This document shows positions 12,691-63,382 of a stretch of 64,000 nt of DNA, one piece after another. Location of the stretch: assembly GCA_023261545.1 (NCBI GenBank), contig JAHFOS010000002.1, positions 62,590 to 126,589 on the forward strand. The letters run 5' to 3'. Origin of the DNA: a bacterium. GTDB lineage: Bacteria > Planctomycetota > JADGBV01. Both the position numbers and the translations under genes were made by a program. The notes beneath the pieces are model-generated. The model made no database searches. It was not told where the DNA came from and saw only the letters and a program-made list of their open reading frames with translations. How positions within the stretch are numbered: the stretch's first letter is position 1; every line of letters begins with the position of its first letter.

Positions 12691-12918
12691 ATGGAAAGCA
12701 AGCGAAACCCAGGCGCCGCCGCGGGAGATCGGCGCTTCGAGCCCCCCGGCCCCATCGCCGGCGCGGGTCGGGCCGGGGAAGCGGCCAAGAGTCCGGCCCT
12801 GGATCGCTGGCGCACGTCGCTGTTTCTAGGTGACGCGCGTCCCCCCTGGATCTCCGAGTCCCGCCGCGGCCCCCAGGCCCTGAAGCGCCTGCTCCAGCGG
12901 CGCGGGATGGTGGATTAG
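12691..12918 (+). CDS. Possible small leader ORF (75 aa, G/A/P/R-rich). Could instead be 5' UTR of the downstream gene
   Basis: Good SD and consensus promoter upstream, but the product is low-complexity. Confidence 0.25.
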   Translation: MESKRNPGAAAGDRRFEPPGPIAGAGRAGEAAKSPALDRWRTSLFLGDARPPWISESRRGPQALKRLLQRRGMVD

Positions 12919-15515
12919 TGAAACGCGCTGGCCTGCTGCTGGCGCTGCTGGTCCGGGGTGCCCTAGAGCTCAGCGCCGCCTCCACCCCTGTTCTGCCCCC
13001 CGAGGAGACGCCCGCCATCCCGCCTTCCGCGGGAGTGGCCCTTGCGGCGACCTCCTTGGTTGTGAGTTCTGGAAACCTCGAGCTGCATTTGGCCAGAAAC
13101 GCCGGAGGTGTTCAAGTGACGAGCCTCCGGGATACGGCCACGGGCACCGAGTTGCAGGCGGGTTCGCTGCGTCTTCCCCTTTTCACCCTGGTCTTGGGGA
13201 ACAACTCCCAGCTCAACGCCGATAGCGGCTGGGGCAAGGTGGAGCTGGCCGCCATTCCAGGCGGAACCTCCTTGCGCTGGAGCGGGGCGGGCGCGGTGCC
13301 GGGCTTGGCAGTGGTGGCCAATCTGCTGCCGGATTCCGGAAACAGCGCCTTGGAGTGGGCGCTGAGCGTGGAGAACACTTCCTTGCTGCCCGTGAGCCGC
13401 GCCATCTTTCCGCAGTTCGCCGTCGCCGATCTCGGAAGCAGTGGCCGCGTTTTCCTGCCGCGCGGGCCGGGGGAAGAGGTGCTTGGCGCCTGGAGCAGCG
13501 CCTTCACCTACAGCGAACTCTATCCCAATGGCTGGAGCGCCAGCCTGCAAGTCCTTGCCGCCTATAACGGCGCCACCGGCCTGTATTTCGCCATGCACGA
13601 TGCGAGTGGCGCAACCAAGCACATTGGCGCCTACGGCTTGCCCGCCTTCAAGGCCGTGAAGTTCGTCTTCGAGCATTTGCCTCCCGGCAGCGCCTCTTCC
13701 GGCAGCTCTTTCACCCTCCAGGGCCGCGGCGTGTGGCGCCTGCTGCGGGGCGATTGGTTCGATGCCGCCCTGGTCCACCGCGAGTGGGCGAGCTTGCAGC
13801 CCGCCATGCTGCCCCCCGATAGAGCGGCGGGAAGCAGCGCGACGCCGCTGTGGATGCGCGAGCTTGGCGTCTGGACCCAGGCCGCCGGCACCGACGCGGC
13901 CACCATCGCCTCCGTCCAGGCCTTTGCCAGATACATGGGCGTGCCCACGGGCTTCCACTGGTACACCTGGCACGCTATTCCTTTCGATAACGATTATCCC
14001 CACTATTTCCCGCCACGCGCCGGCTTCGCCGCGGGGGTGAAAGCCCTCCAGGCCACGGAGCCCAGGATCCGCGTCATGCCCTACATCAACGGCCGGCTGT
14101 GGGATACCCGGGACCAGGGCACTTCTGACTTCGAGTACACGGCGCTGGCGAAACCCGCGACCACCAAGGACGCCGCCCTCGCGCCCAACACCGAGAGCTA
14201 CGGCAGCCTGGAGGCGGATGGCTCTCCGGTGAAACTAGCCGTCATGTGTCCGGCCACCTCCCTGTGGCAAAGCCGGCTGCGCACCATCACCCTGGAGCTT
14301 TTCAAATCCTACGGGGTGGACGGCGTGTATCTGGACCAGATCGCCGCCGCCGCTCCTAAGCTCTGCTACGACGGCGGCCACCCGCACCCCCCGGGCGGAG
14401 GGCGCTGGTGGGTGGACGGTTATCGCAATTTGTTGGCCGGAATCCGCAATGAGATGCCGGCGGATCGCATGCTCACCAGCGAGTCGGCGGTGGATACCTT
14501 CAACGCGGGCTTCGATGGCTACCTGGTGTGGAACTGGCAGCGCAACAATATGGTGCCCGCCTTCAGGGCGATCTATGGCGGAGCCGTCCAGCTTTTCGGA
14601 CGAAACTATAGCGGTGGCCTGCCCCGCGACCTGTCGGTGTGCCAGCGCGCCGGGCAACAGCTCGTCTTCGGCGAGCAACTGGGATGGGCTTTTCCTGGGA
14701 TCATCTACGAAAATTCCGCTCCCTTCCTGCGCGACTGTGCCCGGCTCCGCAACCGCCTGGCGCCCTACTTTTACGCCGGGCGCATGGAACGCCCGCCGCG
14801 TTTCACCGGCGCCAATCCGCCGTGCACCTCCGACTGGCAATGGCAGGGCGCGGCGACGCCGGTGACCACGCCCTCGCTGCTCACGGGCGCTTTCACGCGG
14901 CCTGAAGTCCAAAGCACGATCCTCGTTTTCGCCAATATCTCCGAGACCACCCAGTCGGGCAGCGTGAGCTTTGACGGCGCAACTTATGACCTCAGCGGCA
15001 ACGCGGTTCACCTGCGGGTGGTGCGACCGCAGGCCACGGACACTGCCGTGGCGCAATCGCTCGCTTTCCAGAAAGCTCTGGTATTGCCAGCGCGTTCCGT
15101 CCAAGCCTGGGAAATCGTCGTGGCCCCGGTCGAAGCCGGCGCGGGTGGCGGAACTATTCCCGTTCCAGCCGATGCCGTGCCTTCGGGAAACACCTCCAAT
15201 GGCGCCGGGGTACCCGCGCCCACCCCGGATGTCGGCGCGGCGCCGGCCAACCAAGCGCCCGTGGTGAATGCTGGACTTGATCTGACGGTGACGTTGCCGA
15301 GTGGCGCAAGCCTGAACGGTTCCGCCACGAATGACGGCCTGCCCGCGGGAAACGCGCTGCTTTACAACTGGAACAAGGTTTCAGGCTCCGGGACCGTGAC
15401 CTTTGCCGCTGCGACGGCCTCAGCAACCACGGCGACTTTTCGACTTCAGGAACCTACGTTCTGCGCCTCACGGCCCACGACGGCCTGCTTTCCGGCAGCG
15501 ACGACACGCTGGTGA
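12918..15515 (+). CDS. Secreted glycoside-hydrolase-like protein (DUF6259-like TIM-barrel region) with a C-terminal PKD/K319L-like Ig domain. The reading frame is broken at a T-run at 15437-15440
   Basis: GTG start with signal peptide MKRAGLLLALLVRGALELSAAS. Region FHWYTWHAIPFDNDYPHYFP...VDGVYLDQIAAAAP. C-terminal VVNAGLDLTVTLPSGASLNGSATNDGLP...YNWNKVSGSGTVTFAAATASATTATF is a typical PKD-like repeat that stops abruptly. Confidence 0.65.
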   Translation: MKRAGLLLALLVRGALELSAASTPVLPPEETPAIPPSAGVALAATSLVVSSGNLELHLARNAGGVQVTSLRDTATGTELQAGSLRLPLFTLVLGNNSQLNADSGWGKVELAAIPGGTSLRWSGAGAVPGLAVVANLLPDSGNSALEWALSVENTSLLPVSRAIFPQFAVADLGSSGRVFLPRGPGEEVLGAWSSAFTYSELYPNGWSASLQVLAAYNGATGLYFAMHDASGATKHIGAYGLPAFKAVKFVFEHLPPGSASSGSSFTLQGRGVWRLLRGDWFDAALVHREWASLQPAMLPPDRAAGSSATPLWMRELGVWTQAAGTDAATIASVQAFARYMGVPTGFHWYTWHAIPFDNDYPHYFPPRAGFAAGVKALQATEPRIRVMPYINGRLWDTRDQGTSDFEYTALAKPATTKDAALAPNTESYGSLEADGSPVKLAVMCPATSLWQSRLRTITLELFKSYGVDGVYLDQIAAAAPKLCYDGGHPHPPGGGRWWVDGYRNLLAGIRNEMPADRMLTSESAVDTFNAGFDGYLVWNWQRNNMVPAFRAIYGGAVQLFGRNYSGGLPRDLSVCQRAGQQLVFGEQLGWAFPGIIYENSAPFLRDCARLRNRLAPYFYAGRMERPPRFTGANPPCTSDWQWQGAATPVTTPSLLTGAFTRPEVQSTILVFANISETTQSGSVSFDGATYDLSGNAVHLRVVRPQATDTAVAQSLAFQKALVLPARSVQAWEIVVAPVEAGAGGGTIPVPADAVPSGNTSNGAGVPAPTPDVGAAPANQAPVVNAGLDLTVTLPSGASLNGSATNDGLPAGNALLYNWNKVSGSGTVTFAAATASATTATFRLQEPTFCASRPTTACFPAATTRW

Positions 15516-16120
15516 CGGTGAACCCGGACCCCGACGGTGATCGCGACGGCCTGCCGGATATTTGGGAGCAGGCGCATGGCTTGAACCCCCTGACCGCGGA
15601 GGACGCGACCCAAGACGCTGACAACGACGGCCTGAGCAATCTGGCGGAATACCAGCGCGGGACGGCCATGGACAAGGCTGATACGGATGGCGACGGCCTG
15701 CCGGACGGTTGGGAAGTGGCCCGCGGTTTGAACCCCAGCGCGGCCAGCGATGCGGCCCAGGACGCGGACGCCGACGGCCTCACCAATCTCCAGGAGTACA
15801 CGCTGCACGCGGATCCCCACAACCGCGATTCGGACAGCGACGGTTTGCCGGATGGTTTCGAGGTGGCGCACGGGCTGAGTCCGACGCAGAGCAACGCCAG
15901 CGCGGACACGGACAACGACGGCGTGAGCGACGTGCAGGAGTACCTTCTGGGTCGCGACCCCGCCACCGCTGAGCCGCCGGAAAGCTCCGTGTCCAGTGGG
16001 CCCACCACAACCACCGGGACTTCACCCCTCGTAGCGAGCACGCCGGCGGAGGTCCTGGCAACGGCGGCGAAGATCCAAGCCCCCAGCAGCGCTGGCGGCG
16101 GATGTCTTTTCAGCTTTTAG
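15512..16120 (+). CDS. Frameshifted C-terminal continuation of the 12918 gene: end of the PKD-like domain followed by thrombospondin type-3-like calcium-binding repeats
   Basis: Frame +2 from 15441 reads STSGTYVLRLTAHDGLLSGSDDTLVTVNPDPDGDRDGLPD, the canonical end of a PKD-like domain. Repeated DxDxDGLxDxxE motifs follow (DADNDGLSNLAEY, DTDGDGLPDGWE, DADADGLTNLQEY, DSDSDGLPDGFE, DTDNDGVSDVQEY). Confidence 0.55.
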   Translation: MTVNPDPDGDRDGLPDIWEQAHGLNPLTAEDATQDADNDGLSNLAEYQRGTAMDKADTDGDGLPDGWEVARGLNPSAASDAAQDADADGLTNLQEYTLHADPHNRDSDSDGLPDGFEVAHGLSPTQSNASADTDNDGVSDVQEYLLGRDPATAEPPESSVSSGPTTTTGTSPLVASTPAEVLATAAKIQAPSSAGGGCLFSF

Positions 16121-16144: not shown

Positions 16145-16723
16145 TCACCCCTCCTCCTGGGACTGCCCCTTGAACTGGCTCTCCTTGGAGGCGAAAAGCA
16201 GGTTGAAAGAAGTCAGGCTGCCGTAGCAGCGCGAGATGTAGCCGTCGAGTTCCAGCTTCTCCTCGGGGGAAAGGGAGGGGTGGTTGTTGATCTTCTGCTC
16301 CAGGACGCGCAACTTCTCGCGGACGGTGATGAGTTTTTTGAAGAAAACCTCAAGGGGCAGTTCGCGGGGTTGGGTCTCCTCGCGTCCGGGAACCAGCTTC
16401 AAGCTGCCGCCGACCCAGCGCTTGCCCATCTCCAATTCGCTTTCGATAAACCCCCAATCATCCATGGATTCACGCACCGCCTGGCGGATGCGGTCGAGCT
16501 CGGGATCTCCGGCAGCATGGAGCGGCTTCATGGCCTCGAAGCTGAAGGCCACCACCGTGGCCTCGCCGCCTTTGAAGAGCACGCGATAACCCTCGCTGGT
16601 GTAGCCCACGATACGCCCCGTGCCCTTGAAGGGATGCTGGACCAGGATGCCCAGTCCCAGCTTTGGCCGCTGCGGTGTTGCTTCGCTCATGAGGTCAGTC
16701 TGACTTGTGGAGAAAAGGATCAA
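16145..16723 (-). CDS. Hypothetical protein (192 aa) with a small N-terminal beta-barrel-like motif (DUF3553/CarD-like G..V.H..FG.G.V pattern)
   Basis: LGILVQHPFKGTGRIVGYTSEGYRVLFKGGEATVVAF; complete ORF with coding-like composition. Confidence 0.5.
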   Translation of the reverse strand: MILFSTSQTDLMSEATPQRPKLGLGILVQHPFKGTGRIVGYTSEGYRVLFKGGEATVVAFSFEAMKPLHAAGDPELDRIRQAVRESMDDWGFIESELEMGKRWVGGSLKLVPGREETQPRELPLEVFFKKLITVREKLRVLEQKINNHPSLSPEEKLELDGYISRCYGSLTSFNLLFASKESQFKGQSQEEG

Positions 16724-16781
16724 TGGAGACAGACTTGAAGGGGAGTTGCGTGGGGTTTACAGGCGCGGTCAGGTTATTTAA

Positions 16782-17036
16782 GGCTCATCCGACTAATGCG
16801 TACTTTTCTGGAGTTTTTAACACGGGTGCACGGTCGAGCAAGGCTAGAACCAAAGCGAGCTGCCGGGGGATTTTCCACAGATTGCACAGATTAACACTGA
16901 TAATAATCAATCCGGGCCATCCTTTCTAATCGGTGCAAATCTGTGTAATCTGTGGATGCTCCCGAGTTGAGAACGCAGAGAGCCGAGAACAAATGAGGGG
17001 GAACCCTGCCAGAGGTACGCATTAGTCGGAGGCGCC
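16782..17036. mobile_element. MITE-like non-autonomous element, copy 1 (~255 bp). It has ~22-bp terminal inverted repeats and an 8-bp target-site duplication TTATTTAA
   Basis: Left end GGCTCATCCGACTAATGCGTAC, right end GTACGCATTAGTCGGAGGCGCC. Flanking direct repeats TTATTTAA at 16774-16781 and 17037-17044. Internal inverted pair CCACAGATTGCACAGATTAACAC / GTGCAAATCTGTGTAATCTGTGG. A second copy lies at 62931-63181. Confidence 0.6.
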
Positions 17037-17087
17037 TTATTTAAAGCGCCAACTGTGCAGGCAAGGTAAGACATGGCATGCACATGG

Positions 17088-17501
17088 CTAAATTTTTCCA
17101 ACATTGGCTTTTCCCACAAAACTCTCCAGCGTCATAATCTCTACCTCCGGCGCGTATTCGATATGATTCCGGAGTCCTCCGCTCGTGTAGAATTCCCGAA
17201 GACGCCACCCCTCGCCGCCCAACACCAAATAGGCCTTCTCGAACTCGCCGCTTCGCACCGCCTCCAAAAGGCAGATGATTTCGAATGGCACCTTCTGTTC
17301 CGCTGTTCCCCCTACCTGCTGCCATTTGAGAGACAGCAGCATTTTTCGGCTGTTCTTTGCGATTACGGCGTCCACCTTATGCAGACCACCACCCGGCCTT
17401 CTGCCGATATTGACCTGCTTTTCCCACACATATCCGCCGTGATTCAGGGCGGGCAGCACCATCGCTTCGAGAATCCCTCCGGTGCTGGTGTTTCGCCCCA
17501 T
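17088..17501 (-). CDS. Putative small restriction-endonuclease-like protein (PD-(D/E)xK-like fold) coupled to the Dam-family methyltransferase
   Basis: Translationally coupled (1-nt overlap) directly downstream of the methyltransferase. Motif pattern: helix with Glu (GGILEAMV), then HKVDAVIAK, then LLSLKWQ (S-x-K in place of E-x-K). Locally lower GC. Confidence 0.45.
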   Translation of the reverse strand: MGRNTSTGGILEAMVLPALNHGGYVWEKQVNIGRRPGGGLHKVDAVIAKNSRKMLLSLKWQQVGGTAEQKVPFEIICLLEAVRSGEFEKAYLVLGGEGWRLREFYTSGGLRNHIEYAPEVEIMTLESFVGKANVGKI

Positions 17502-18382
17502 CAGAGATTACGCAGTGCTAGTATCTCGCGTACTGGTGTGCGATCCCCGGTGCAACTGATGCGCCGGGGAGCCTTGAGGAATGCCAGCTTGTAGCCGAGG
17601 TTCTCATAGAGGCTCACTATGCGATCCGTGGCCTGATTGGAGAGAACCACAGGGCCCGGATGACGACACAGCCAATTGGCTAGGCGTTCTTGGTCCGCCC
17701 ATGTGAAGTCCTCTTTGGCGTAACGTGTAAACTCAACATCGTAGGGCGGGTCAGCGTAAACAAAGTCATCAGGGAGAAGCGACACCTTCTCAAAATCTTC
17801 GCAGAGAAATGTCCATCGCCGTGTCACCGTGCGAAAGCTCGTGAAGTCCCGGGCGTAGTTGATGGTGGCATAGCGGCCGAAGGGGACGTTAAATTTTCCA
17901 CTGCTGTTGAAACGGCAGAGGCCGTTGAATCCCGTGCGGTTCAGGTAATAGAACAGGGCTGCCGCCTCGCCGCTCTTGCGGCCACCATTGGAAATCAAGG
18001 CATTGAAACTTCGGCGATTCTGTTCGTAGACGTCTCGGTCATTCATCATGCACACATCAGCAAGTGCGCCGCGCTTCAAAGCCCGATAGAAGTTAATGAG
18101 GTGGGGGTTAATGTCATTGAGAAGAGCTCGGGAAGGTCCAAATCCCAATGTGACCGCCAGCCCCCCGCAAAAAGGCTCCACGAGACGACGGCTGCGGTAC
18201 GGTACCCAGAGGGGTAGCAAGTGTGGCACCAACCATCGCTTACCCCCCGCCCATTTGAGAGGTGGTGTCGAGGCGCACTTCCGCGCGCTTTTCCCAAACA
18301 TTGTCGCCGGTGCCGCCATCTTATTCATCACCCGGTCCATCTTACCCCCTCCCCAAAGCCGCAAATGTCCGATTTCGTCCAC
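17501..18382 (-). CDS. Dam-family N6-adenine DNA methyltransferase
   Basis: PLKWAGGKRWL (motif I region of the Dam family) and catalytic DPPY (YADPPYD). The true start is probably an internal Met (MNKM or MFGK). Confidence 0.85.
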   Translation of the reverse strand: MDEIGHLRLWGGGKMDRVMNKMAAPATMFGKSARKCASTPPLKWAGGKRWLVPHLLPLWVPYRSRRLVEPFCGGLAVTLGFGPSRALLNDINPHLINFYRALKRGALADVCMMNDRDVYEQNRRSFNALISNGGRKSGEAAALFYYLNRTGFNGLCRFNSSGKFNVPFGRYATINYARDFTSFRTVTRRWTFLCEDFEKVSLLPDDFVYADPPYDVEFTRYAKEDFTWADQERLANWLCRHPGPVVLSNQATDRIVSLYENLGYKLAFLKAPRRISCTGDRTPVREILALRNL

Positions 18383-18719
18383 ATTCTATTCACTCCCCCT
18401 GGCGCGGCTTCCTGCTGGCCCACACCCTCTGTCTCGCCTACCTCGCCATCTTCCTGCGCTTGCGGCGCATCCCCCTGTCCCACGAGCGCGCGGCGCTGGC
18501 CTGCACGCTGATCTTCGGCCTGCCGGCGCTGCTTGTTTTCCTTTCCCCGCCGCTTTTCAAGAAGCGCGCCGCCTGCAGCGCCTGCCGCCAGCGTATTCCC
18601 GTCACCTTGCCCACCTGCCCCTGCTGCGGGGCGCCGACGTCGTGAGGCGATAGGTCTGCCGTGCGTCCCAGAGGGAGATGGCGGCGTATCCAGCTCGCTA
18701 TATCGGATAGCATGTTACA

Positions 18720-19010
18720 ATGATCAAGAGTATCGCGGGCCGGATCACACAGGATATCTACGATGGCACGGATAGCCGAAACGCGCGCAAGGTTCCCGTC
18801 GAGCTGCACGGCAAGAGCCGTCGGCTCCTGGATCAGATCAACGCGGCCGCGCGCATTGAAAATATGCGCGTTCCCCCCGGCAACAGGCTCCAGGCCCTTG
18901 CCGGCGATCGCAAGGGTTTTTGGAGCATTCGCGTCAATGATCAATGGAGGGTCGTGTTTCGCTGGATCGACAACGACGCTTATGATGTGGAAATCACGGA
19001 TTACCATTAA
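18720..19010 (+). CDS. higB: HigB-like toxin (RelE/ParE superfamily, plasmid maintenance system killer)
   Basis: MIKSIAGRITQDIYDG...PPGNRLQALAGDRKGFWSIRVNDQWRVVFRWIDNDAYDVEITDYH matches the HigB signature (GNRLE.L.GDR.G.WSIRIN.QWRI.F.W....A..V.I.DYH). Confidence 0.8.
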   Translation: MIKSIAGRITQDIYDGTDSRNARKVPVELHGKSRRLLDQINAAARIENMRVPPGNRLQALAGDRKGFWSIRVNDQWRVVFRWIDNDAYDVEITDYH

Positions 19011-19019
19011 GGAACGCTG

Positions 19020-19316
19020 ATGTTGCCAAGAAACCGACCGCCCACCCATCCCGGAGAGATGCTTTTCAAAGAGTTCATTGAACCGAGCGATATCACGCAG
19101 AGTGCTTTTGCCAGGCACCTGGGCTGGTCTTTCGCCAGACTCAATGAGATCGTGCGCGGCAAGCGCGGCGTCACCGCAGACTCGGCTCTATCTTTCGGTG
19201 AGGCGTTGGGCACGGGACCAGAATTCTGGCTCAATCTGCAAAGGAATTGGGATTTGTGGCATTCGCAGCGGAAACATAGGCCGGTCGGACCCCTTAAATC
19301 GTTGGTGAGGCGCTGA
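19020..19316 (+). CDS. higA: HigA antitoxin (XRE-family helix-turn-helix)
   Basis: HPGEMLFKEFIEPSDITQSAFARHLGWSFARLNEIVRGKRGVTADSALSFGEALGTGPEFWLNLQRNWDL is the canonical HigA HTH. Located 10 nt downstream of higB. Confidence 0.8.
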   Translation: MLPRNRPPTHPGEMLFKEFIEPSDITQSAFARHLGWSFARLNEIVRGKRGVTADSALSFGEALGTGPEFWLNLQRNWDLWHSQRKHRPVGPLKSLVRR

Positions 19317-34891: not shown

Positions 34892-35018
34892 GTAAGCGTT
34901 CAACCCACGGAACGTGTCTTCGTCTTACCACCGGCATTCAGGTCCGTTCTTGCTGGGCTTGTCGAAGCATGAACGGGCCGTGACCGCCCTTGCCGTCCAC
35001 CCTTCGACAAGCTCAGGG
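34892..35018. repeat. REP-like double-hairpin repeat element, copy B, immediately after the sucD stop
   Basis: GTAAGCGTTCAACCCACGG...GGTCCGTTCTTGCTGGGCTTGTCGAAGCATGAACGGGCC...CCGTCCACCCTTCGACAAGCTCAGGGCGAACGGCGG. Confidence 0.55.
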
Positions 35019-35055
35019 CGAACGGCGGGGTACACGCGATGCTTGGGTAAAAAGA

Positions 35056-35714
35056 TGAGAGGGTTGGCCTGCGGCATAGCTATCACCGTGATGGTTTTCT
35101 TACTGTCAGGGTGTAATATTCCCCTCTCCCTGCAGCCTTTTCACACAGAAAAAGACCGCGTGGCTATGCAGGAAAAGGTCGCCGGTCCTTGGCAATTGAC
35201 CGTCTATGTAGGAAAAGAGTGGGAGGGGGAGGATACCCGGCCATGGGTGTTCAGTGGGAATCAGAGCGCGGTGAAGCTCGAAACCTATGACGCAAAAAAC
35301 AGGCGCGCTTTGCTCGATATCGCGTTCTTCAATTCCGGCAAGGCGCTTTTTTGTGACATTTTTCCCGGAGATTCCGACCGCCAAGATCAAGACAGTGAAA
35401 TTTTGGAGCTACACATGATTCCGTGTCACTCGGTAGCTAAGGTGTTCGTGACACCAGAGCGACTCAAATTCTTTTTTCTGAATTTTGAATGGTTGGAATC
35501 AGAGTTAGAGAAAGGCAACGTCAAGCTCCGGCGCATTGAGACCGAGACGCATCGTCTGTTGCTCTTCGACGAACCACCGGAAACATGGAAATCCTTTCTG
35601 CTCGAACACGGCGACAACCCCGAAGCCTTTCCCGAAAAGACCCGCATCGAACTCATCCGGCCCAACCCGGCGGAGCCGGAACCCAAAGACAAGGCACTAA
35701 AAAGTCCCCCATAG
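35056..35714 (+). CDS. Hypothetical lipoprotein
   Basis: MRGLACGIAITVMVFLLSGC is a signal peptide with a lipobox Cys. The longer track ORF (34914) reads through the REP element and is rejected as the start. Confidence 0.5.
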
Positions 35715-35773
35715 CCTTTCCCCCTCCGCATTCTCCGCGCCTAAAACCTTGAAAATAGACGGTTTTTACTAAA

Positions 35774-36031
35774 ATGCTGCGCATGAAAAATAAATCAGGC
35801 AACCTGCTGGAGAAGGCCCTGAACCTGAGTCCCAATGCAAGAGCCGCCATCGCTCATTGCCTGATTCAGAGCCTGGAAGAGCCGTCAGACCTGAACCACG
35901 AGAAAGCATGGTTGAAAATCGCCAAGAAGAGATGGGAGGAAATCGAGCGAGGTGAAGCGCAAACGGTGAAATGGGGTGCGATTAAAAATAGTATCGTGAA
36001 AAAATATGCTAAGCCTCGAGTTTCACGCTGA
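35774..36031 (+). CDS. Putative addiction-module antitoxin (Unstab_antitox-like)
   Basis: LSPNARAAIAHCLIQSLEEP...EKAWLKIAKKRWEEIERGEAQTVKW matches the family pattern. Its stop overlaps the start of the downstream ParE-like ORF. Confidence 0.55.
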   Translation: MLRMKNKSGNLLEKALNLSPNARAAIAHCLIQSLEEPSDLNHEKAWLKIAKKRWEEIERGEAQTVKWGAIKNSIVKKYAKPRVSR

Positions 36032-36308
36032 TGTTCGTCATGAAATTGAAAGCGCCGTTGATTAGTACGAAAATCAATCTCCGGGATTGGGTTTTGACTA
36101 CCTGAGCGAACTGGAGGAAAGTTTCGCCATCCTGTTGTCAAATCCAAACGCCTGGATTAATTTGGAGTTTGGTTTTAAGAAGTTCATCTTGCATAGGTTT
36201 CCATTTTCGATAATTTATAGAATTCAAAATAATATTGTGTTTGTTCTTGCTGTAGCGCACGCCGGTCGAAAACCAGGCTATTGGCAATCGAGACTAGGGG
36301 CGGGTTGA
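36003..36308 (+). pseudogene. ParE/RelE-family toxin gene inactivated by an in-frame amber codon (TGG to TAG at 36060-36062)
   Basis: ATG 36003 gives MLSLEFHADVRHEIESAVD, then TAG, then the same frame continues YENQSPGLGFDYLSELEESFAILLSNPNAWINLEFGFKKFILHRFPFSIIYRIQNNIVFVLAVAHAGRKPGYW. The conserved Trp of the ParE A..DW.Y motif sits at the stop position. Confidence 0.5.
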
Positions 36309-36696
36309 CGGGCCATTGTTATGGCGGCCATGGCCGTGGTGGTTGTGTGATCGTGGGTTTTGGGTGACCCCAGTCGATCGCAGGAAGGGTTGGCCGTAGA
36401 TTGACGACAAAACCGATCGGGAGAGTGGGGTTGGGCATTACATTCGGGGTGTTCACCGCCCAGAGCTTCACACGCAAGTGCGCCATGAAAGCCGGTGTTT
36501 TGGAACACCGGGGATGAAAGACCAATCTGTAATCCGAGGAGTCCGGGAATCTCGAACTTCCCGAATCGAAGCAACGGGAGAAACCCACAAATAACTACGG
36601 CGCATTTTACACTTTAAATTAATATGGACTTCAAGTCCATGAACCTAGGATGCGCCGCGCAATTTTTACGATTCCTGGCTCGCTCCTGCATTAGAA

Positions 36697-38109
36697 ATGG
36701 CAACAAAAATGAGAAACGTATGGGTGAGACCCCTCATGGCTGCTCTGCTGTTTTCCTGCGCGCTGGTGGAAGGCGCGCAGGAGGAGCGCGCCATCGAGGT
36801 TGATTTCGCCAAACCTGCCGGGGTGATCCGGCCCTTGAACGGCGTGAATGGCGGGCCTATCGTGACGCGGGGAGCCTTCGACCTGTCTCCGCAGTTCGCG
36901 GAACTCGGCATCCAGCACATCCGCCTGCACGACATTCCCTGGACCTACGAGGACGCGGTGGACATCGACTGCGTCTTCCCGCGTTTCGACGCCGATCCCG
37001 ACGATCCGAAGAGCTACAATTTCGCGACGACGGATTACTATGTCAAAACTATTCTGCCCCTCGGCGCGGAGATGACCTTCCGCCTCGGCTACAGCGCCGA
37101 ATGGCCGTTCCATCCTCCGATTCACAAGGCACCGCCGAAGGATTTCAAGAAGTGGGCCGCCGTGTGCACGCGCATCGTGCGCCACTACACCCAGGGCTGG
37201 GCCGACGGCTACAAATACAAAATCCGCGAATGGGAGATCTGGAACGAGCCGGACATCCCCTCTTTCTGGTCGGGAACCCCGGAGGAGTTCTACCAACTCT
37301 ATGAAATGACCGCCAAGGCGGTGAAGGCGCTGGACCCGGCCACTCTCAAAGTGGGCGGTCCCGCTCTGGCGGGAACCCACAAGTTTCTAGAGGGGCTGCT
37401 CAAGCACTGCCAGGAGACAAAGACCCCCGTGGATTTCGTGTCCTGGCACCGCTACGCCCGCAATCCCTTCGACCTCGCTACGGAAGCGGCCACCGTCCAG
37501 GCGCTCATGGACAAATATGGTTTTTCCAAGGCCGACAACATCCTGAACGAATGGAACTATTTCCCGGGCGATTGGGACCGCCAGCTCAAGGAGCCGGAAT
37601 ACCGGCGCGATCTCTTCGCTAACCAGATGGGCGGCGCGCCCGGGGCGGCGTACGACGCCGCGGCTCTAGTTTACCTCCAGGACTCTTCCGTGGACATCGC
37701 CGACTTCTACCAGGGCACCACCATGTTCTGGGGCGGCCTGTTCGACGAGTTCGGCGTTCCCCGAAAGCCCTATTACACGTTCAAGGCCTTCAAGATTCTG
37801 CTGGAGACGCCCGAGCGCGCGGCGACCTCGGGATCCGATCAATCGGGTTTCGCCGTGCTCGCGGGGATGTCGAAGGACCAGGCGACAGCTAATATCCTGA
37901 TCAGCAACTTCGGAGCAACTTCCAATCATTACAAGATCGCTCTGCGGGGACTTCCTGAAGGCAAAACCTACGACTGCGAATGGTATGCCGTTGACGGCAG
38001 CCGTGATCTGGGCCTCGTCAAATCAGAGAAACTAAAGCCAGGGCCGGTCACGATTTCCGGCGACGTAGAGACGCCCTCGGTGTGTTTGATCCGTCTGCGG
38101 GCGCGCTAA
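36697..38109 (+). CDS. Secreted clan GH-A glycoside hydrolase (GH39/GH5-like)
   Basis: Signal peptide MATKMRNVWVRPLMAALLFSCALVEGAQ. REWEIWNEPD is the clan GH-A acid/base motif NEP. TIM-barrel length protein followed by a C-terminal beta-sandwich. Confidence 0.7.
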   Translation: MATKMRNVWVRPLMAALLFSCALVEGAQEERAIEVDFAKPAGVIRPLNGVNGGPIVTRGAFDLSPQFAELGIQHIRLHDIPWTYEDAVDIDCVFPRFDADPDDPKSYNFATTDYYVKTILPLGAEMTFRLGYSAEWPFHPPIHKAPPKDFKKWAAVCTRIVRHYTQGWADGYKYKIREWEIWNEPDIPSFWSGTPEEFYQLYEMTAKAVKALDPATLKVGGPALAGTHKFLEGLLKHCQETKTPVDFVSWHRYARNPFDLATEAATVQALMDKYGFSKADNILNEWNYFPGDWDRQLKEPEYRRDLFANQMGGAPGAAYDAAALVYLQDSSVDIADFYQGTTMFWGGLFDEFGVPRKPYYTFKAFKILLETPERAATSGSDQSGFAVLAGMSKDQATANILISNFGATSNHYKIALRGLPEGKTYDCEWYAVDGSRDLGLVKSEKLKPGPVTISGDVETPSVCLIRLRAR

Positions 38110-45955: not shown

Positions 45956-46777
45956 GTGTCTAGGAAGTCAAAGGTCAACACCAAAGAATTTAATTTTTTT
46001 TCGGCCAAAGGACTTTTTGTTAAAGAACACGGAGAAATATTGAGGCCGTATGCTAAAATAGTAATTGGTAATTGTAGCAACGAGGCTTCCACCGAGGGTC
46101 TTGTAATTATGAGCGATCCTGGGGGTGCATCAGAAAAGGAGGATGAAAAAGATGATGAGGGTCTAATTAAGGTCGAACCGGACCCGACCATGAAAAGTAT
46201 TTTTGGGCACATTCGTCTGATAAAAATGGAGTGGGACGATGCCACATGGGAAAAAGATTTTAACTTGACCCTTCATATTCTTAATTTGATACCCATTGAT
46301 ACTAAAAATAAATCTGCGTGCAAAACGCTTGCCGATATCGAACAAATGAGGAAAATATTTAAAAAAATACGATTAAATTATGCGAATTATAAATTTTTCT
46401 GGCTTGCATGGGGCTCGAATAAGAAAATAAAAATTAATGATAATTGTGACATAAAGTCTATTGCAGTTACAAAGCCCCCTCGAGATAAAAAAAATTCTAG
46501 TTGCTGTTGTGATGGCGAGGGGAATTTTAATAGTAATCTTTTAGTAATTCATAAAAAATTTGATATTATAAAAGAAAACATTGGGCTTCTAAATTGCTTA
46601 TTGAAGGCTAAAATATATGAAAAAATAGTGGGAGATCCTGGGGAAGATGAATGGGAATCCAGTTGCGCGGATATTGTTAAGAAAACTTGGAGGCACCCAC
46701 TTTCGCGCATGGAGCACACAAATTGGCGTCGAATATTGCACGGCATTTCTCAGGCGTGCTGTCCCCCCGCAAATTAA
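45956..46777 (+). CDS. Hypothetical ORFan protein in a strongly AT-rich (~35% GC) island
   Basis: 273-aa ORF, Lys/Asn/Ile-rich, with no motif recognised. The composition contrasts sharply with neighbours, which suggests horizontal acquisition. Confidence 0.45.
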   Translation: MSRKSKVNTKEFNFFSAKGLFVKEHGEILRPYAKIVIGNCSNEASTEGLVIMSDPGGASEKEDEKDDEGLIKVEPDPTMKSIFGHIRLIKMEWDDATWEKDFNLTLHILNLIPIDTKNKSACKTLADIEQMRKIFKKIRLNYANYKFFWLAWGSNKKIKINDNCDIKSIAVTKPPRDKKNSSCCCDGEGNFNSNLLVIHKKFDIIKENIGLLNCLLKAKIYEKIVGDPGEDEWESSCADIVKKTWRHPLSRMEHTNWRRILHGISQACCPPAN

Positions 46778-46783
46778 TTCTCC

Positions 46784-47113
46784 TCACCTCCCATCCCCAC
46801 TCCCCCCCAAGACCCCGCGGCTCTTCCTTGACCCCAGTTTCGCGAGGTTCCCCGCGGCGACATCCTCCAGGCTGACGCCCAGTTCGCTGGCCATGTTGGA
46901 AAGGTACCAGAGCACGTCGCCCATTTCCTTCATCAGTTCCGGCTTGGCTTCCGCCGTGACCTCCCCTTTGTCGTCGCGCAGGACTTTCTTGATCTTGTCG
47001 GCGACTTCGCCGGTTTCTCCGCACAGCCCTAGGCCGGTGTAGGGGAGGTTCTTGCCCACATCCGGGTAAAACGCGAACTCTCGGGCCTTGTTCTGGTATT
47101 CGGAAAATGTCAT
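46784..47113 (-). CDS. MazG-like nucleoside-triphosphate pyrophosphohydrolase (small all-alpha NTP-PPase)
   Basis: EYQNKAREFAFYP...YTGLGLCGETGEVADKIKK...EMGDVLWYLSNMASELGVSLEDV matches the MazG family EExxE and metal-binding helix pattern. Confidence 0.7.
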   Translation of the reverse strand: MTFSEYQNKAREFAFYPDVGKNLPYTGLGLCGETGEVADKIKKVLRDDKGEVTAEAKPELMKEMGDVLWYLSNMASELGVSLEDVAAGNLAKLGSRKSRGVLGGSGDGR

Positions 47114-50472: not shown

Positions 50473-51096
50473 TCAAAGAGCACACCATGCGGCTGATTCT
50501 TGGCGGCTATCCAAAACCATGAGCTGACGGCCTTCCTGGTCCGCAAGAACCCATCGCCGCAGATCGATAGTCAACCCCTCGAAATGGATTTCGAAATTAA
50601 CGCTTTGGATCCCAGTGGCAATGACGATATGCGGCTCCCAATCCTCGTCCAGTTCGAAATTGAAACCGGCCTTCTCGTAAAAGTCCCCTTGCAAATCCTG
50701 GTAAAGTGCGCAGAACTCCTGAGATTCGAGATGCCACATCAGCCGGTCGCCCTCGTGGGATAATTTGTCCACGGAGCAACGCAAAAGGAATCTGGTAGGC
50801 TTGTAGCCTCGCAGGACTTCGCCGGCCCTCGCCGGATCGCCCTGGCCAACGAACCAGCGCTTCACCGGCACATGCCAGTGCTCTGGCCTCACCAAGCGGG
50901 CTTTGGGGTTTTCCTTGAGGATCTCGCCGATGGAGTCCACGACCGCTTGGAGTTCCAGGGAGTGGTTACGTTTCTCGAAGACCGGCGTGGCGGCCAAAAG
51001 CCAGCCTTCGTCGGTGCAGCTTGGGTTGCCGCCAGCAACGCGGATGGAGACGTCGAAGGGGAAAGAGCCGGAACGCCACCTCTCTGAAATCGTCAT
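50473..51096 (-). CDS. Hypothetical protein (207 aa), possibly a degenerate 2H-phosphoesterase (LigT-like) fold
   Basis: Two H-x-[TSPV]-x-like sites: RPEHWHVPV and EPHIVIATG, spaced as in 2H enzymes. Speculative. Last full gene of the ATPase operon. Confidence 0.5.
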   Translation of the reverse strand: MTISERWRSGSFPFDVSIRVAGGNPSCTDEGWLLAATPVFEKRNHSLELQAVVDSIGEILKENPKARLVRPEHWHVPVKRWFVGQGDPARAGEVLRGYKPTRFLLRCSVDKLSHEGDRLMWHLESQEFCALYQDLQGDFYEKAGFNFELDEDWEPHIVIATGIQSVNFEIHFEGLTIDLRRWVLADQEGRQLMVLDSRQESAAWCAL

Positions 51097-51100
51097 CTGA

Positions 51101-52216
51101 TTAAACAGTAAACAAGGGCTTTAAAATTTCATGTACTTTGTTGTAACCATTTGCAATTCGCTCGCTCCAACTTTTACCTTCTATGGGTATCGCGATGCCC
51201 CAATGGCGGTCTCTGGTTACTAGCGGCTTATTTATTTTTAGAGAGAGCGCATAGTTCTCAAGAAATTTTCCACTCTCCTTTTTCTTATCAGCAGTTAACC
51301 ACAATAACTCTGGAGTGGAGTTGGTCTCATCACCAGGAAAAATCCAACAGCCAAACCAAAAATCGCTTCCCTTGTCACGGCTCCCCTTGTCACGCAGCGT
51401 ATAACCGCAAGCTATACTGGAACTATATTTTCCACCCATTCCCTTGGTTGCATTAAACCGTTGTATGAAGCCGGGACCGCATTTCAGTCGCTCAATAATT
51501 TCAAAGACAACCCGATCAATCTCAAACAAGCACATGATAAACTTGCCCCTGTTGTCATCAAATTGTGACGTTGATTGCAAAAAATGCGGATCAATATTTT
51601 TCATGACTTCTAGAACCTCCTTTGAGTAAAATGTGCAATTAGTGCGATCTGGCTCGATCCTCGCATTGTTATTTATCGCATTACTAATTAGCTTCTGGAT
51701 ACGCTGCCAGCTAATTCCGACGAAATTAATGGATGGGTGCGCTTCTCCATTGAGGGGGTACTCATCGTTGTTTTCTTCAGCAAGGTGTATGCGCCATTTT
51801 GGTTTGGGGATGGTTGAAAACTGCGCGATATCGATCTTTGGCTTGAGACTTAATTCGGGAGCAATTACGACAAGAGCATTCTTGTCCCTTTTCGGGACAT
51901 CGAGCTCTCCTAAATATTTCCCCGGCTGATCGTCCGTCCATTTTGCGTCAATCTTAGACTCGATGACGACCACAAAATTCTTGTCAACCCATTTAAGATC
52001 ATATCGCCCATCTCCTTTGTCGGTTCCCTGCTGAGTATCGCAAGAGATGGGAGATTCGTTGCCGATTTCTCCCTTTCCTTCATCTTTCCAGATTAATTGG
52101 GCAAACCCTCTTCGGAATTCAGGACAGTACTCGATGAGAAAGGCGAGCGACTCTGTGACCTGATCTTCCGGTTTTGGTCGGCCCAACAGTCGCAGCAAAA
52201 GATGTCGCCGGCTCAT
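51101..52216 (-). CDS. Hypothetical protein with an N-terminal PD-(D/E)xK nuclease-like motif, encoded by a low-GC gene
   Basis: GDGRYDLKWVDKNFVVVIESKIDAKW follows the D...(E/D)xK pattern. The gene is about 40% GC while the flanking genes are above 60%. 52-bp gap to the upstream ATPase gene. Confidence 0.55.
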   Translation of the reverse strand: MSRRHLLLRLLGRPKPEDQVTESLAFLIEYCPEFRRGFAQLIWKDEGKGEIGNESPISCDTQQGTDKGDGRYDLKWVDKNFVVVIESKIDAKWTDDQPGKYLGELDVPKRDKNALVVIAPELSLKPKIDIAQFSTIPKPKWRIHLAEENNDEYPLNGEAHPSINFVGISWQRIQKLISNAINNNARIEPDRTNCTFYSKEVLEVMKNIDPHFLQSTSQFDDNRGKFIMCLFEIDRVVFEIIERLKCGPGFIQRFNATKGMGGKYSSSIACGYTLRDKGSRDKGSDFWFGCWIFPGDETNSTPELLWLTADKKKESGKFLENYALSLKINKPLVTRDRHWGIAIPIEGKSWSERIANGYNKVHEILKPLFTV

Positions 52217-62843: not shown

Positions 62844-62930
62844 GGATCTAAAAGCCGGCCATTGTGGGACATGCCGGGCCGGTGCAAACCCGGCTCGTCA
62901 GCGTTTATTTGACGACTTCCGCCAAAAAAG

Positions 62931-63181
62931 GCTCACCCGAATAATGCGTACCTTTCTAGAATTTTCACGCCGGTGCCTGGTCGAGCAAGACCGGAACCAA
63001 ATTTAGCTGCCAGGGGGATTTTCCACAGATTGCACAGATTAACACAGATAATAATCACGCAGGACCGTCTTTTTTAATCAGTGCAAATCCGTGTAATCTG
63101 TGGATGCTCCCGAGTTTGGAGCACTGAGGAGCAAGAAAAATAGGGAAGACACTGCCGAAGTACGCATTATTCGGATGAGCC
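62931..63181. mobile_element. MITE-like element, copy 2 (~250 bp), with an 8-bp target-site duplication CAAAAAAG, inserted upstream of / overlapping the 5' end of the ECF sigma factor ORF
   Basis: Left end GCTCACCCGAATAATGCGTAC, right end GTACGCATTATTCGGATGAGCC. Flanking direct repeats CAAAAAAG at 62923-62930 and 63183-63190. The internal sequence is near-identical to copy 1. Confidence 0.6.
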
Positions 63182-63382
63182 TCAAAAAAGCCTCGCGCGC
63201 TCGGAACGCCATGGCCTGGACGGAGACTCCTGGTAAAATGCCTGAAGATGAAGGCGCCATGACCCCGGTCGTAGAAGAAGAAATCGCGGCTCCCTCTTTA
63301 CCCCCCATTTTGGAGGGGTTATCCCCTGTTTTAGGGGAGGTGGGGGACGAACTCCTAGCCGGGGCCGAACTCTGCGCCGCCA

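Follow-up and report, generated by a model that had tools for sequence, protein, structure and literature searches.

A Dam-family methylase gene overlapping a gene for a 137-residue PDDEXK_11 protein: a candidate compact type II restriction–modification module in a planctomycete contig

The DNA analysed here, referred to as the window, is a stretch of 64,000 nucleotides (nt) of a planctomycete contig (JAHFOS010000002.1, positions 62,590 to 126,589). On its minus strand lie two genes that overlap by a single base, the first for a methyltransferase of the Dam family and the second for a protein of 137 amino acids (aa) that is a candidate restriction endonuclease (Table 1). A preliminary description, made from the sequence alone, had proposed that the two form a compact type II restriction–modification (R–M) system, and we found both open reading frames (ORFs) on the strand and at the positions that it gave, with the 1-nt overlap. 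The letters at the junction read CTC-TGA-TGG-GGC, the A of the methylase stop codon TGA being also the A of the nuclease start codon ATG. This overlap implies translational coupling, in the order methylase then nuclease. A scan of the operon for promoters and terminators returned nothing usable.

The mechanically called methylase ORF opens with a GTG that is probably too far upstream, and the gene most likely starts at the ATG at 18340, because a GGAGG precedes this ATG and because the methylase is called at 279 aa in a public contig that carries an identical nuclease. In another public contig the methylase appears as a "truncated" protein of 182 aa. We rejected this form as a gene-calling artefact caused by an antisense ORF of 185 aa (18096-18653, plus strand), which lies opposite the methylase gene in its 5′ region and is called as a gene in one public contig. 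The artefact could give the methylase a defective look in databases. The base composition of the pair is atypical. Its G+C content is 55.8%, whereas the window as a whole has 62.3%; a value this low occurs in 8.9% of segments of the same size. The low local G+C noted previously is real but modest. At third codon positions the G+C fraction (GC3) of the pair is 0.63-0.65, compared with about 0.8 for neighbouring genes.

Table 1. Positions of the gene pair, of its neighbours in the window and of related loci mentioned in the text
Feature	Sequence or locus	Positions	Strand	Remark
Dam-family methylase ORF	window	17501..18382	minus	mechanical ORF, GTG start, 293 aa
Dam-family (D12 class, alpha-group) N6-adenine DNA methyltransferase	window	17501..18340	minus	preferred ATG start, 279 aa
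Shine-Dalgarno-like GGAGG	window	18348..18352	minus	7 nt 5′ of ATG 18340; read from sequence
TGATG junction	window	17499..17503	minus	methylase stop and nuclease start, one base common
PD-(D/E)XK nuclease (Pfam PDDEXK_11), candidate restriction endonuclease	window	17088..17501	minus	stand-alone, 137 aa, ATG start
MITE-like element, 271 bp	window	16774-17044	none	43 nt downstream of nuclease stop; context, outside the system
higB	window	18720-19010	plus	toxin–antitoxin gene, divergent from methylase, upstream; context, outside the system
higA	window	19020-19316	plus	toxin–antitoxin gene, divergent from methylase, upstream; context, outside the system
192-aa ORF	window	16145-16723	minus	just past the MITE; 181 aa in public gene calls; GC3 0.80, host-like
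PF05869-type methylase partner	L123	3399-3908		such partners also at L095-L110, L137, L145, L150, L152, L155, L156
Nuclease decay	L243			internal deletion takes out D44-K59
Nuclease decay	L172			WQQ...E68 segment deleted
Nuclease decay	L196			frameshift
Nuclease decay	L182			30-residue remnant

The methylase scored 142.1 bits against Pfam MethyltransfD12 (PF02086; gathering score 22, E = 3.3e-41) and 192.8 bits against TIGR00571 dam (cutoff 114.85). It carries KWAGGK/EPFCGG in the motif I region and DPPY at motif IV, in the contexts LKWAGGKRW and YADPPYD, and the family assignment made earlier was thus borne out. It scored below the equivalog model for E. coli Dam (NF008152; 123 bits, cutoff 441). 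Among proteins of solved structure it is closest to E. coli Dam (EcoDam; 2G1P, 9e-29) and DpnM (2DPM, 2e-28), and its best PADLOC model was "orphan methyltransferase" (PDLC03729, E = 2.8e-75). In a HMMER alignment to 2G1P, the methylase keeps seven GATC-contact residues of EcoDam (K9, N120, L122, R124, P134, R137 and Y138); at the position of an eighth, Y119, it has phenylalanine, which is still aromatic. In EcoDam, K9 and Y138 read the first base pair of GATC, R124 reads the fourth, Y119 intercalates, N120 hydrogen-bonds a base, and L122 and P134 contact GATC bases, the contacts of these two residues to the second-position adenine being described as identical to those of the cognate complex (PMC4417163). 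Because the residues that contact GATC in EcoDam are conserved, the most likely target of the methylase, as predicted from the alignment, is the adenine of GATC.

The only Pfam match of the 137-aa protein at E <= 1 was PDDEXK_11 (PF20472; 43.7 bits, gathering score 23.7), a nuclease family, and we saw no homology to a non-nuclease family. It also matched phrog_6124, which is annotated as being of unknown function. It had no NCBIfam match, and no PADLOC match at E <= 1; neither Pfam nor NCBIfam linked it to the MutH/Sau3AI, Vsr or DpnII families, and comparison with PDB sequences, whether with the single sequence or with a profile of 48 sequences, gave nothing meaningful. A confident AlphaFold2 model built from 48 relatives (predicted local distance difference test 89.2, predicted template-modelling score 0.86) contains a helix (residues 10-21), three strands (25-34, 40-49 and 52-61), a second helix (68-83), a further strand (89-96) and a short C-terminal strand-helix. 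As modelled, the protein is a bare PD-(D/E)XK core with the order alpha-beta-beta-beta-alpha-beta and no extra domain. The model matched the restriction endonucleases Upx (10.1), BstEII (9.3), EcoT38I (7.9), NgoMIV (7.5), BglII (7.4), PspGI, BsoBI, BsaWI and OkrAI and the other PD-(D/E)XK nucleases AF1548, XisH, Bax1, Can2, NucS and Hjc. No one family was prominent among the structural matches and the MutH/Sau3AI family was not among the top 60; a fold comparison with BFVD gave nothing decisive. The profile match and the predicted fold together uphold the earlier proposal that the small protein is of the PD-(D/E)XK nuclease type.

The motifs on which that proposal was based are present in the protein, as LEAMV (with E12), HKVDAVI (with D44) and LLSLKWQQ (with S57 and K59). 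Eight residues, E12, D44, S57, K59, Q61, E68, K70 and E74, are invariant in the 48 close relatives and are retained in cyanophage homologues that are 32-35% identical. As candidate catalytic residues we propose E12 in helix 1, D44 in strand 2, S57-x-K59 in strand 3 and, where helix 2 begins, E68/K70.

The gene pair is closely linked in cellular genomes. Starting from the nuclease, we collected 80 genome loci in which it is 57-69% identical to that of the window. An orthologous D12 methylase (53-69% identical) was directly adjacent in 76 of them. It lay upstream, with the same orientation, at 74 loci and downstream at the other 2; one of the 76, at a locus in a long-read metagenome-assembled genome (L016), is interrupted by frameshifts. 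Only 3-4 of the 80 nucleases lacked a Dam neighbour. Among the 74 loci with the methylase upstream, the two genes overlap by 4 nt in 49, and nearly all of the other junctions fall within -11 to +8 nt. The pairwise distances of methylase and nuclease were correlated (Mantel r = 0.88, a value reached in 0 of 2000 permutations), and the mean divergence of the two proteins was equal (0.35 and 0.36). When loci were joined by single linkage on a shared flanking ORF, the 80 fell into 29 flank-sharing groups, and the module therefore sits in many distinct genomic contexts. About 25 loci from Pseudanabaena are syntenic, with the pair between housekeeping genes and no third conserved gene.

We also made counts starting from the methylase, in 80 metagenome loci with a methylase 59-69% identical to that of the window, about 65 of which were informative. 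An intact nuclease adjoined the methylase in 29 loci, and in 2 it was cut by the contig end. In another 29 there was no nuclease despite at least 450 bp of available downstream sequence, the flanks being unrelated housekeeping genes, and in 15 the flanking sequence was too short to judge. At least 4 loci had a decayed nuclease beside an intact methylase, with lesions ranging from a frameshift to deletions of the putative active site (Table 1). The methylase is thus often alone or beside a decayed nuclease and an intact nuclease seldom occurs without one, an asymmetry that fits R–M systems.

The nuclease family is large and patchily distributed. A word-indexed search returned about 2000 relatives, nearly all of 137-139 aa and 64-70% identical, and an exhaustive profile search (E <= 1e-3) gave at least 648 family clusters at 50% identity, almost all of them stand-alone proteins of 135-150 aa. 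We looked for methylase–nuclease fusions among these 648 clusters and found no genuine one; long members that might have been fusions had N- or C-terminal extensions instead or, in one case (P0183), were a probable read-through artefact. With one genome per species (about 185,000 species genomes), the family occurred at 329 loci, in hosts that include Acidobacteriota (many of them Vicinamibacterales), Pseudanabaena and other cyanobacteria, Binatia, Proteobacteria, Verrucomicrobiota and Zixibacteria. No homologue of the nuclease was present in a plasmid collection. Every source named the family members either hypothetical or "PD-(D/E)XK nuclease superfamily protein".

Homologues are also found in viruses. 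There were 39 phage records with a homologue, all of them T4-like cyanomyoviruses, and in S-RIM50, ACG-2014b and S-RIM12 a D12 methylase stands directly before a homologue of 144 aa. A set of viral contigs yielded 80 loci in 27 clusters, in which we identified methylases by Pfam and tblastn. In 50 of these loci a methylase lay within 3 kb, and it was of the D12, the PF05869/TIGR01712 phage "Dam" or the N6_N4 family. In the largest viral cluster, a 169-aa phage "Dam" of the PF05869/TIGR01712 type follows the nuclease with overlapping stop and start codons, and the order is reversed, nuclease then methylase (Table 1). The Dam methylase of phage T1 is, we presume, a member of PF05869. GATC is the site that T1 Dam modifies, and M.Btr190III, a relative with 35% identity to it, methylates GATC too (PMC4996451). 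At another viral locus (L139, 1424-4504), a 165-aa nuclease homologue stands between two N6_N4 (PF01555) methylases of 437 and 256 aa. The pairing of the nuclease thus survives replacement of the methylase, as it recurs with three unrelated families of adenine methylase.

We consider it likely, although well short of certain, that the pair is a mobile and compact two-gene type II R–M module, in which the methylase probably acts on GATC and the nuclease, probably as a homodimer, cuts unmethylated sites. This reading draws on the conserved catalytic core, on the coupled and co-diverging adenine-methylase partner and on the recurrence of non-homologous partners, and further on the patchy spread across phyla, the atypical composition and the loss of the nuclease with the methylase kept. 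In such a module, the upstream gene would supply a Dam-family methyltransferase that methylates the adenine of GATC, and the coupled downstream gene would supply a 137-aa protein whose homodimer cuts that site in its unmethylated state. With the methylase gene first and the stop and start codons overlapping, the nuclease would not be made without the methylase. For the nuclease, we infer activity, a dimeric state, cleavage at GATC and a block of cleavage by methylation. The proposal of a compact type II R–M system in the preliminary description is accordingly supported by the PDDEXK_11 match and fold, the linkage in 76 of 80 loci, the coupling, the co-divergence and the asymmetry of decay.

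Several observations weigh against this reading. In the 137-aa protein a serine (S57) stands where the (D/E)xK motif has its canonical acidic residue; by analogy with Cfr10I and NgoMIV, the acidic residue would have to come from helix 2, where the invariant E68 could substitute. The protein has no obvious separate element for DNA recognition. GATC is not avoided: in a test of 4-bp palindromes, its observed/expected ratio was 0.97 for the window and, with the 80 loci pooled, 1.00. This lends the reading no support, although missing depletion is little counter-evidence for a recently acquired cassette. The asymmetry and decay described above would equally be expected of a nuclease that is useful, rather than toxic, only together with its methylase, as for Vsr and Dcm, and would also fit a methylase-dependent repair nuclease. 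We found no published study of PF20472/PDDEXK_11, nor of a small nuclease of this family linked to GATC or orphan methylases, REBASE being outside the comparison.

Some family members also depart from the pairing. Two cellular loci (L006 and L021) have an intact nuclease and no methylase within 4 kb. In two others, both from Acidobacteriota (L002 and L015), the neighbouring methylase is CcrM-like, of the GANTC family, and thus no obvious cognate of the nuclease. At L015 (3042-3992) this beta-class methylase occupies the upstream position and the C terminus of the nuclease is disrupted; at L002 the nuclease is intact, there is no Dam within 4 kb, and the CcrM-like methylase is two genes away. 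We considered these N6_N4 methylases as replacements of the same specificity and rejected the idea, as they are CcrM-like (6PBD, E = 4e-59). An unannotated ORF of 177 aa lies between the nuclease homologue and the beta-class methylase at L002 (4415-5805), possibly a second R–M pair. About 30 of the 80 viral loci have no methylase nearby, and several lie in T4-like modules for replication and nucleotide metabolism. Examples without a methylase (L108, L117, L124, L134 and L143) are near a gp44 clamp loader, ThyX, dUTPase, UvdE with a PDDEXK_1 protein, and PolB with UvsX/RecA. The wider family may therefore not be exclusively linked to restriction, or the partner may be encoded elsewhere in large phage genomes.

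One alternative, which we regard as unlikely, is that the PDDEXK_11 protein is no classical, self-sufficient restriction enzyme but belongs to a new kind of methylation-gated nuclease module, either a cassette of Dam plus a nickase or a core that borrows recognition from its paired adenine methylase. A Dam-plus-nickase cassette could provide a portable means of discriminating strands, or self from non-self, outside Gammaproteobacteria. T4-like cyanophages could use their homologue to dismantle unmethylated host DNA.

It also seems quite improbable to us that the small protein, instead of being a restriction enzyme, is a nuclease that nicks or repairs DNA under the direction of methylation, a functional analogue of MutH or Vsr with the kind of genetic coupling to its methylase that links vsr and dcm. 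MutH nicks the unmethylated strand at hemimethylated GATC. The layout of the pair, a methylase gene followed by a small overlapping nuclease gene, is like that of dcm and vsr, and a nuclease that rarely occurs without the methylase, with the methylase often alone, is also expected of a helper nuclease that, by itself, would be of no use but would do no harm. The lack of GATC avoidance, the stable position of the pair in about 25 genomes of Pseudanabaena, all with the same syntenic housekeeping context, and the few intact solitary copies that are tolerated point in the same direction. However, the protein has no profile match to MutH/Sau3AI or Vsr and MutH is outside its top 60 structural matches, which disfavours the nickase alternative that had been offered alongside the restriction proposal. 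N6-methyladenine is not known to give rise to a mutagenic lesion that needs a dedicated repair nuclease. A MutH-like role would also need a matched MutL and MutS, which is hard to square with a cassette that crosses phyla and occurs in lytic T4-like cyanophages, and no more than 329 of about 185,000 species genomes carry the family.

We see equally little prospect for a second explanation, that the small protein is a general nuclease of DNA metabolism of phage origin (a structure-specific resolvase or flap nuclease, or an enzyme that degrades host DNA), transferred together with Dam and acting independently of methylation. The many viral homologues that lack an adjacent methylase and stand beside PolB, clamp-loader, UvsX/RecA, dUTPase, ThyX or UvdE genes are consistent with it, as is the annotation of phrog_6124. 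In cellular genomes, however, the nuclease is almost always coupled to a methylase, and at the level of translation, and the two proteins co-diverge. Hitch-hiking leaves unexplained the pairing with three unrelated methylase families, and it is the nuclease gene that decays while the methylase stays intact.

Most improbable is a third explanation, that the 137-aa core is a non-specific nuclease subunit docked on a methyltransferase that supplies GATC recognition, giving a two-subunit enzyme reminiscent of type I, III or IIB systems: although the protein is a catalytic core alone with no extra domain, and its tight co-translation and equal-rate co-evolution with the methylase would suit such a complex, the three structurally unrelated families of partner methylase and the intact solitary copies disfavour a specific protein–protein interface, 45 invariant non-catalytic positions leave room for direct readout of a 4-bp site, and the 648 clusters hold no genuine fusion.

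The surroundings of the pair in the window are as they had been described, with a miniature inverted-repeat transposable element (MITE) on one side and a higBA module on the other. The MITE-like element has 30-nt terminal inverted repeats (16774-16803 and 17015-17044) that are 87% complementary and begin TTATTTAAGG, and it also holds an internal inverted repeat of 40 nt. A second copy lies at 62928-63182, with 81% identity over 259 nt by blastn, the copies being about 260-270 bp long. The toxin and antitoxin genes have clear family matches (PF05015, E = 1.1e-19; TIGR02607, 92.4 bits, cutoff 47.7), and their GC3 is lowered as well (0.70 for higB and 0.65 for higA). Together, higBA and the candidate R–M pair make up a small accessory island. 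The lower G+C and GC3 of the pair, and its position between the MITE and higBA, argue for horizontal acquisition of the module. The 192-aa ORF just past the MITE had no Pfam, NCBIfam or PADLOC match. We ruled out both higBA and this ORF as members of the module, as no homologue of either was present in any of the 80 related loci.

Further out, a large secreted-looking protein is encoded at 12918-16120 on the plus strand, where it appears as two mechanical ORFs in the window and as one protein of 1067 aa in a public contig. It contains DUF6259, a PKD-like domain and bacterial thrombospondin type-3 repeats (D-rich, with DxDxDGxxD motifs). The window also has other stretches of low G+C, at about 35000-37000 (0.52), 46000-47000 (0.43) and 51000-52000 (0.45), compared with a window mean of 0.62, which suggests further islands that are horizontally acquired or non-coding.

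Should the predicted activity of the nuclease prove real, the protein would represent an untested and widespread family of restriction enzymes, with at least 648 clusters, 329 species genomes and members in T4-like cyanophages. It would then be the smallest PD-(D/E)XK restriction enzyme and a useful minimal system in which to study the reading of a 4-bp site by a bare core. PADLOC misses the nuclease and scores the methylase as an orphan, so that complete R–M systems may go unrecognised in counts of "orphan Dam" from soil Acidobacteriota, Pseudanabaena and cyanophages.

Among known systems, the GATC-specific MutH/Sau3AI family, a nickase and a restriction enzyme, shares with the window protein the PD-(D/E)XK superfamily and a functional tie to Dam methylation of GATC. 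MutH, however, has 229 aa, needs MutL, is not encoded next to dam and has no sequence match to the window nuclease. The dcm–vsr pair has the same arrangement of a methylase gene followed by a small overlapping nuclease gene, and there too the nuclease is rarely found without the methylase. It differs in that Vsr repairs T:G mismatches that arise by deamination of 5-methylcytosine and is partnered by a C5 methylase, whereas the partner in the window is an N6-adenine methylase; moreover, the window nuclease has no similarity to the Vsr family and has homologues in lytic phages.

In Cfr10I and NgoMIV the active site is a variant in which D and S-x-K are followed by a glutamate from the next helix. 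The layout of the window protein, with D, S-x-K and a helix-borne E, resembles this variant, E68 being, judging from the order of residues, the putative relocated glutamate. Those enzymes are about 285 aa long, form tetramers and cut CCGG-containing sites, and they have no detectable sequence homology to the window nuclease. DpnII/MboI resemble the pair in their Dam-class (D12) methyltransferase (the DpnM match at 2e-28), in the predicted GATC target, in the type II logic and in their occurrence as mobile cassettes. By contrast, the window nuclease is unrelated to theirs in sequence (no Pfam DpnII match) and about half the size of R.DpnII (about 288 aa), the window has no second methylase of the DpnA type, and its order is methylase then nuclease with overlapping codons.

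In size, the closest comparisons are PvuII and PacI, which like the window protein are single-domain proteins of the same size class, and presumably homodimers. PvuII has 157 aa and a PD-(D/E)XK fold with the canonical D...ExK motif. PacI has an HNH active site and a beta-beta-alpha-metal fold, whereas the window protein has S-x-K and is shorter than either. PacI, with 142 aa, has been ranked among the smallest restriction enzymes known (PMC11529989), and the earlier statement that a 137-aa enzyme would be among the smallest type II nucleases therefore holds. Set beside these systems, the biology of a type II R–M cassette is ordinary and mechanistically unsurprising; what is noteworthy is the minimal size and wide environmental spread of an uncharacterised nuclease family.

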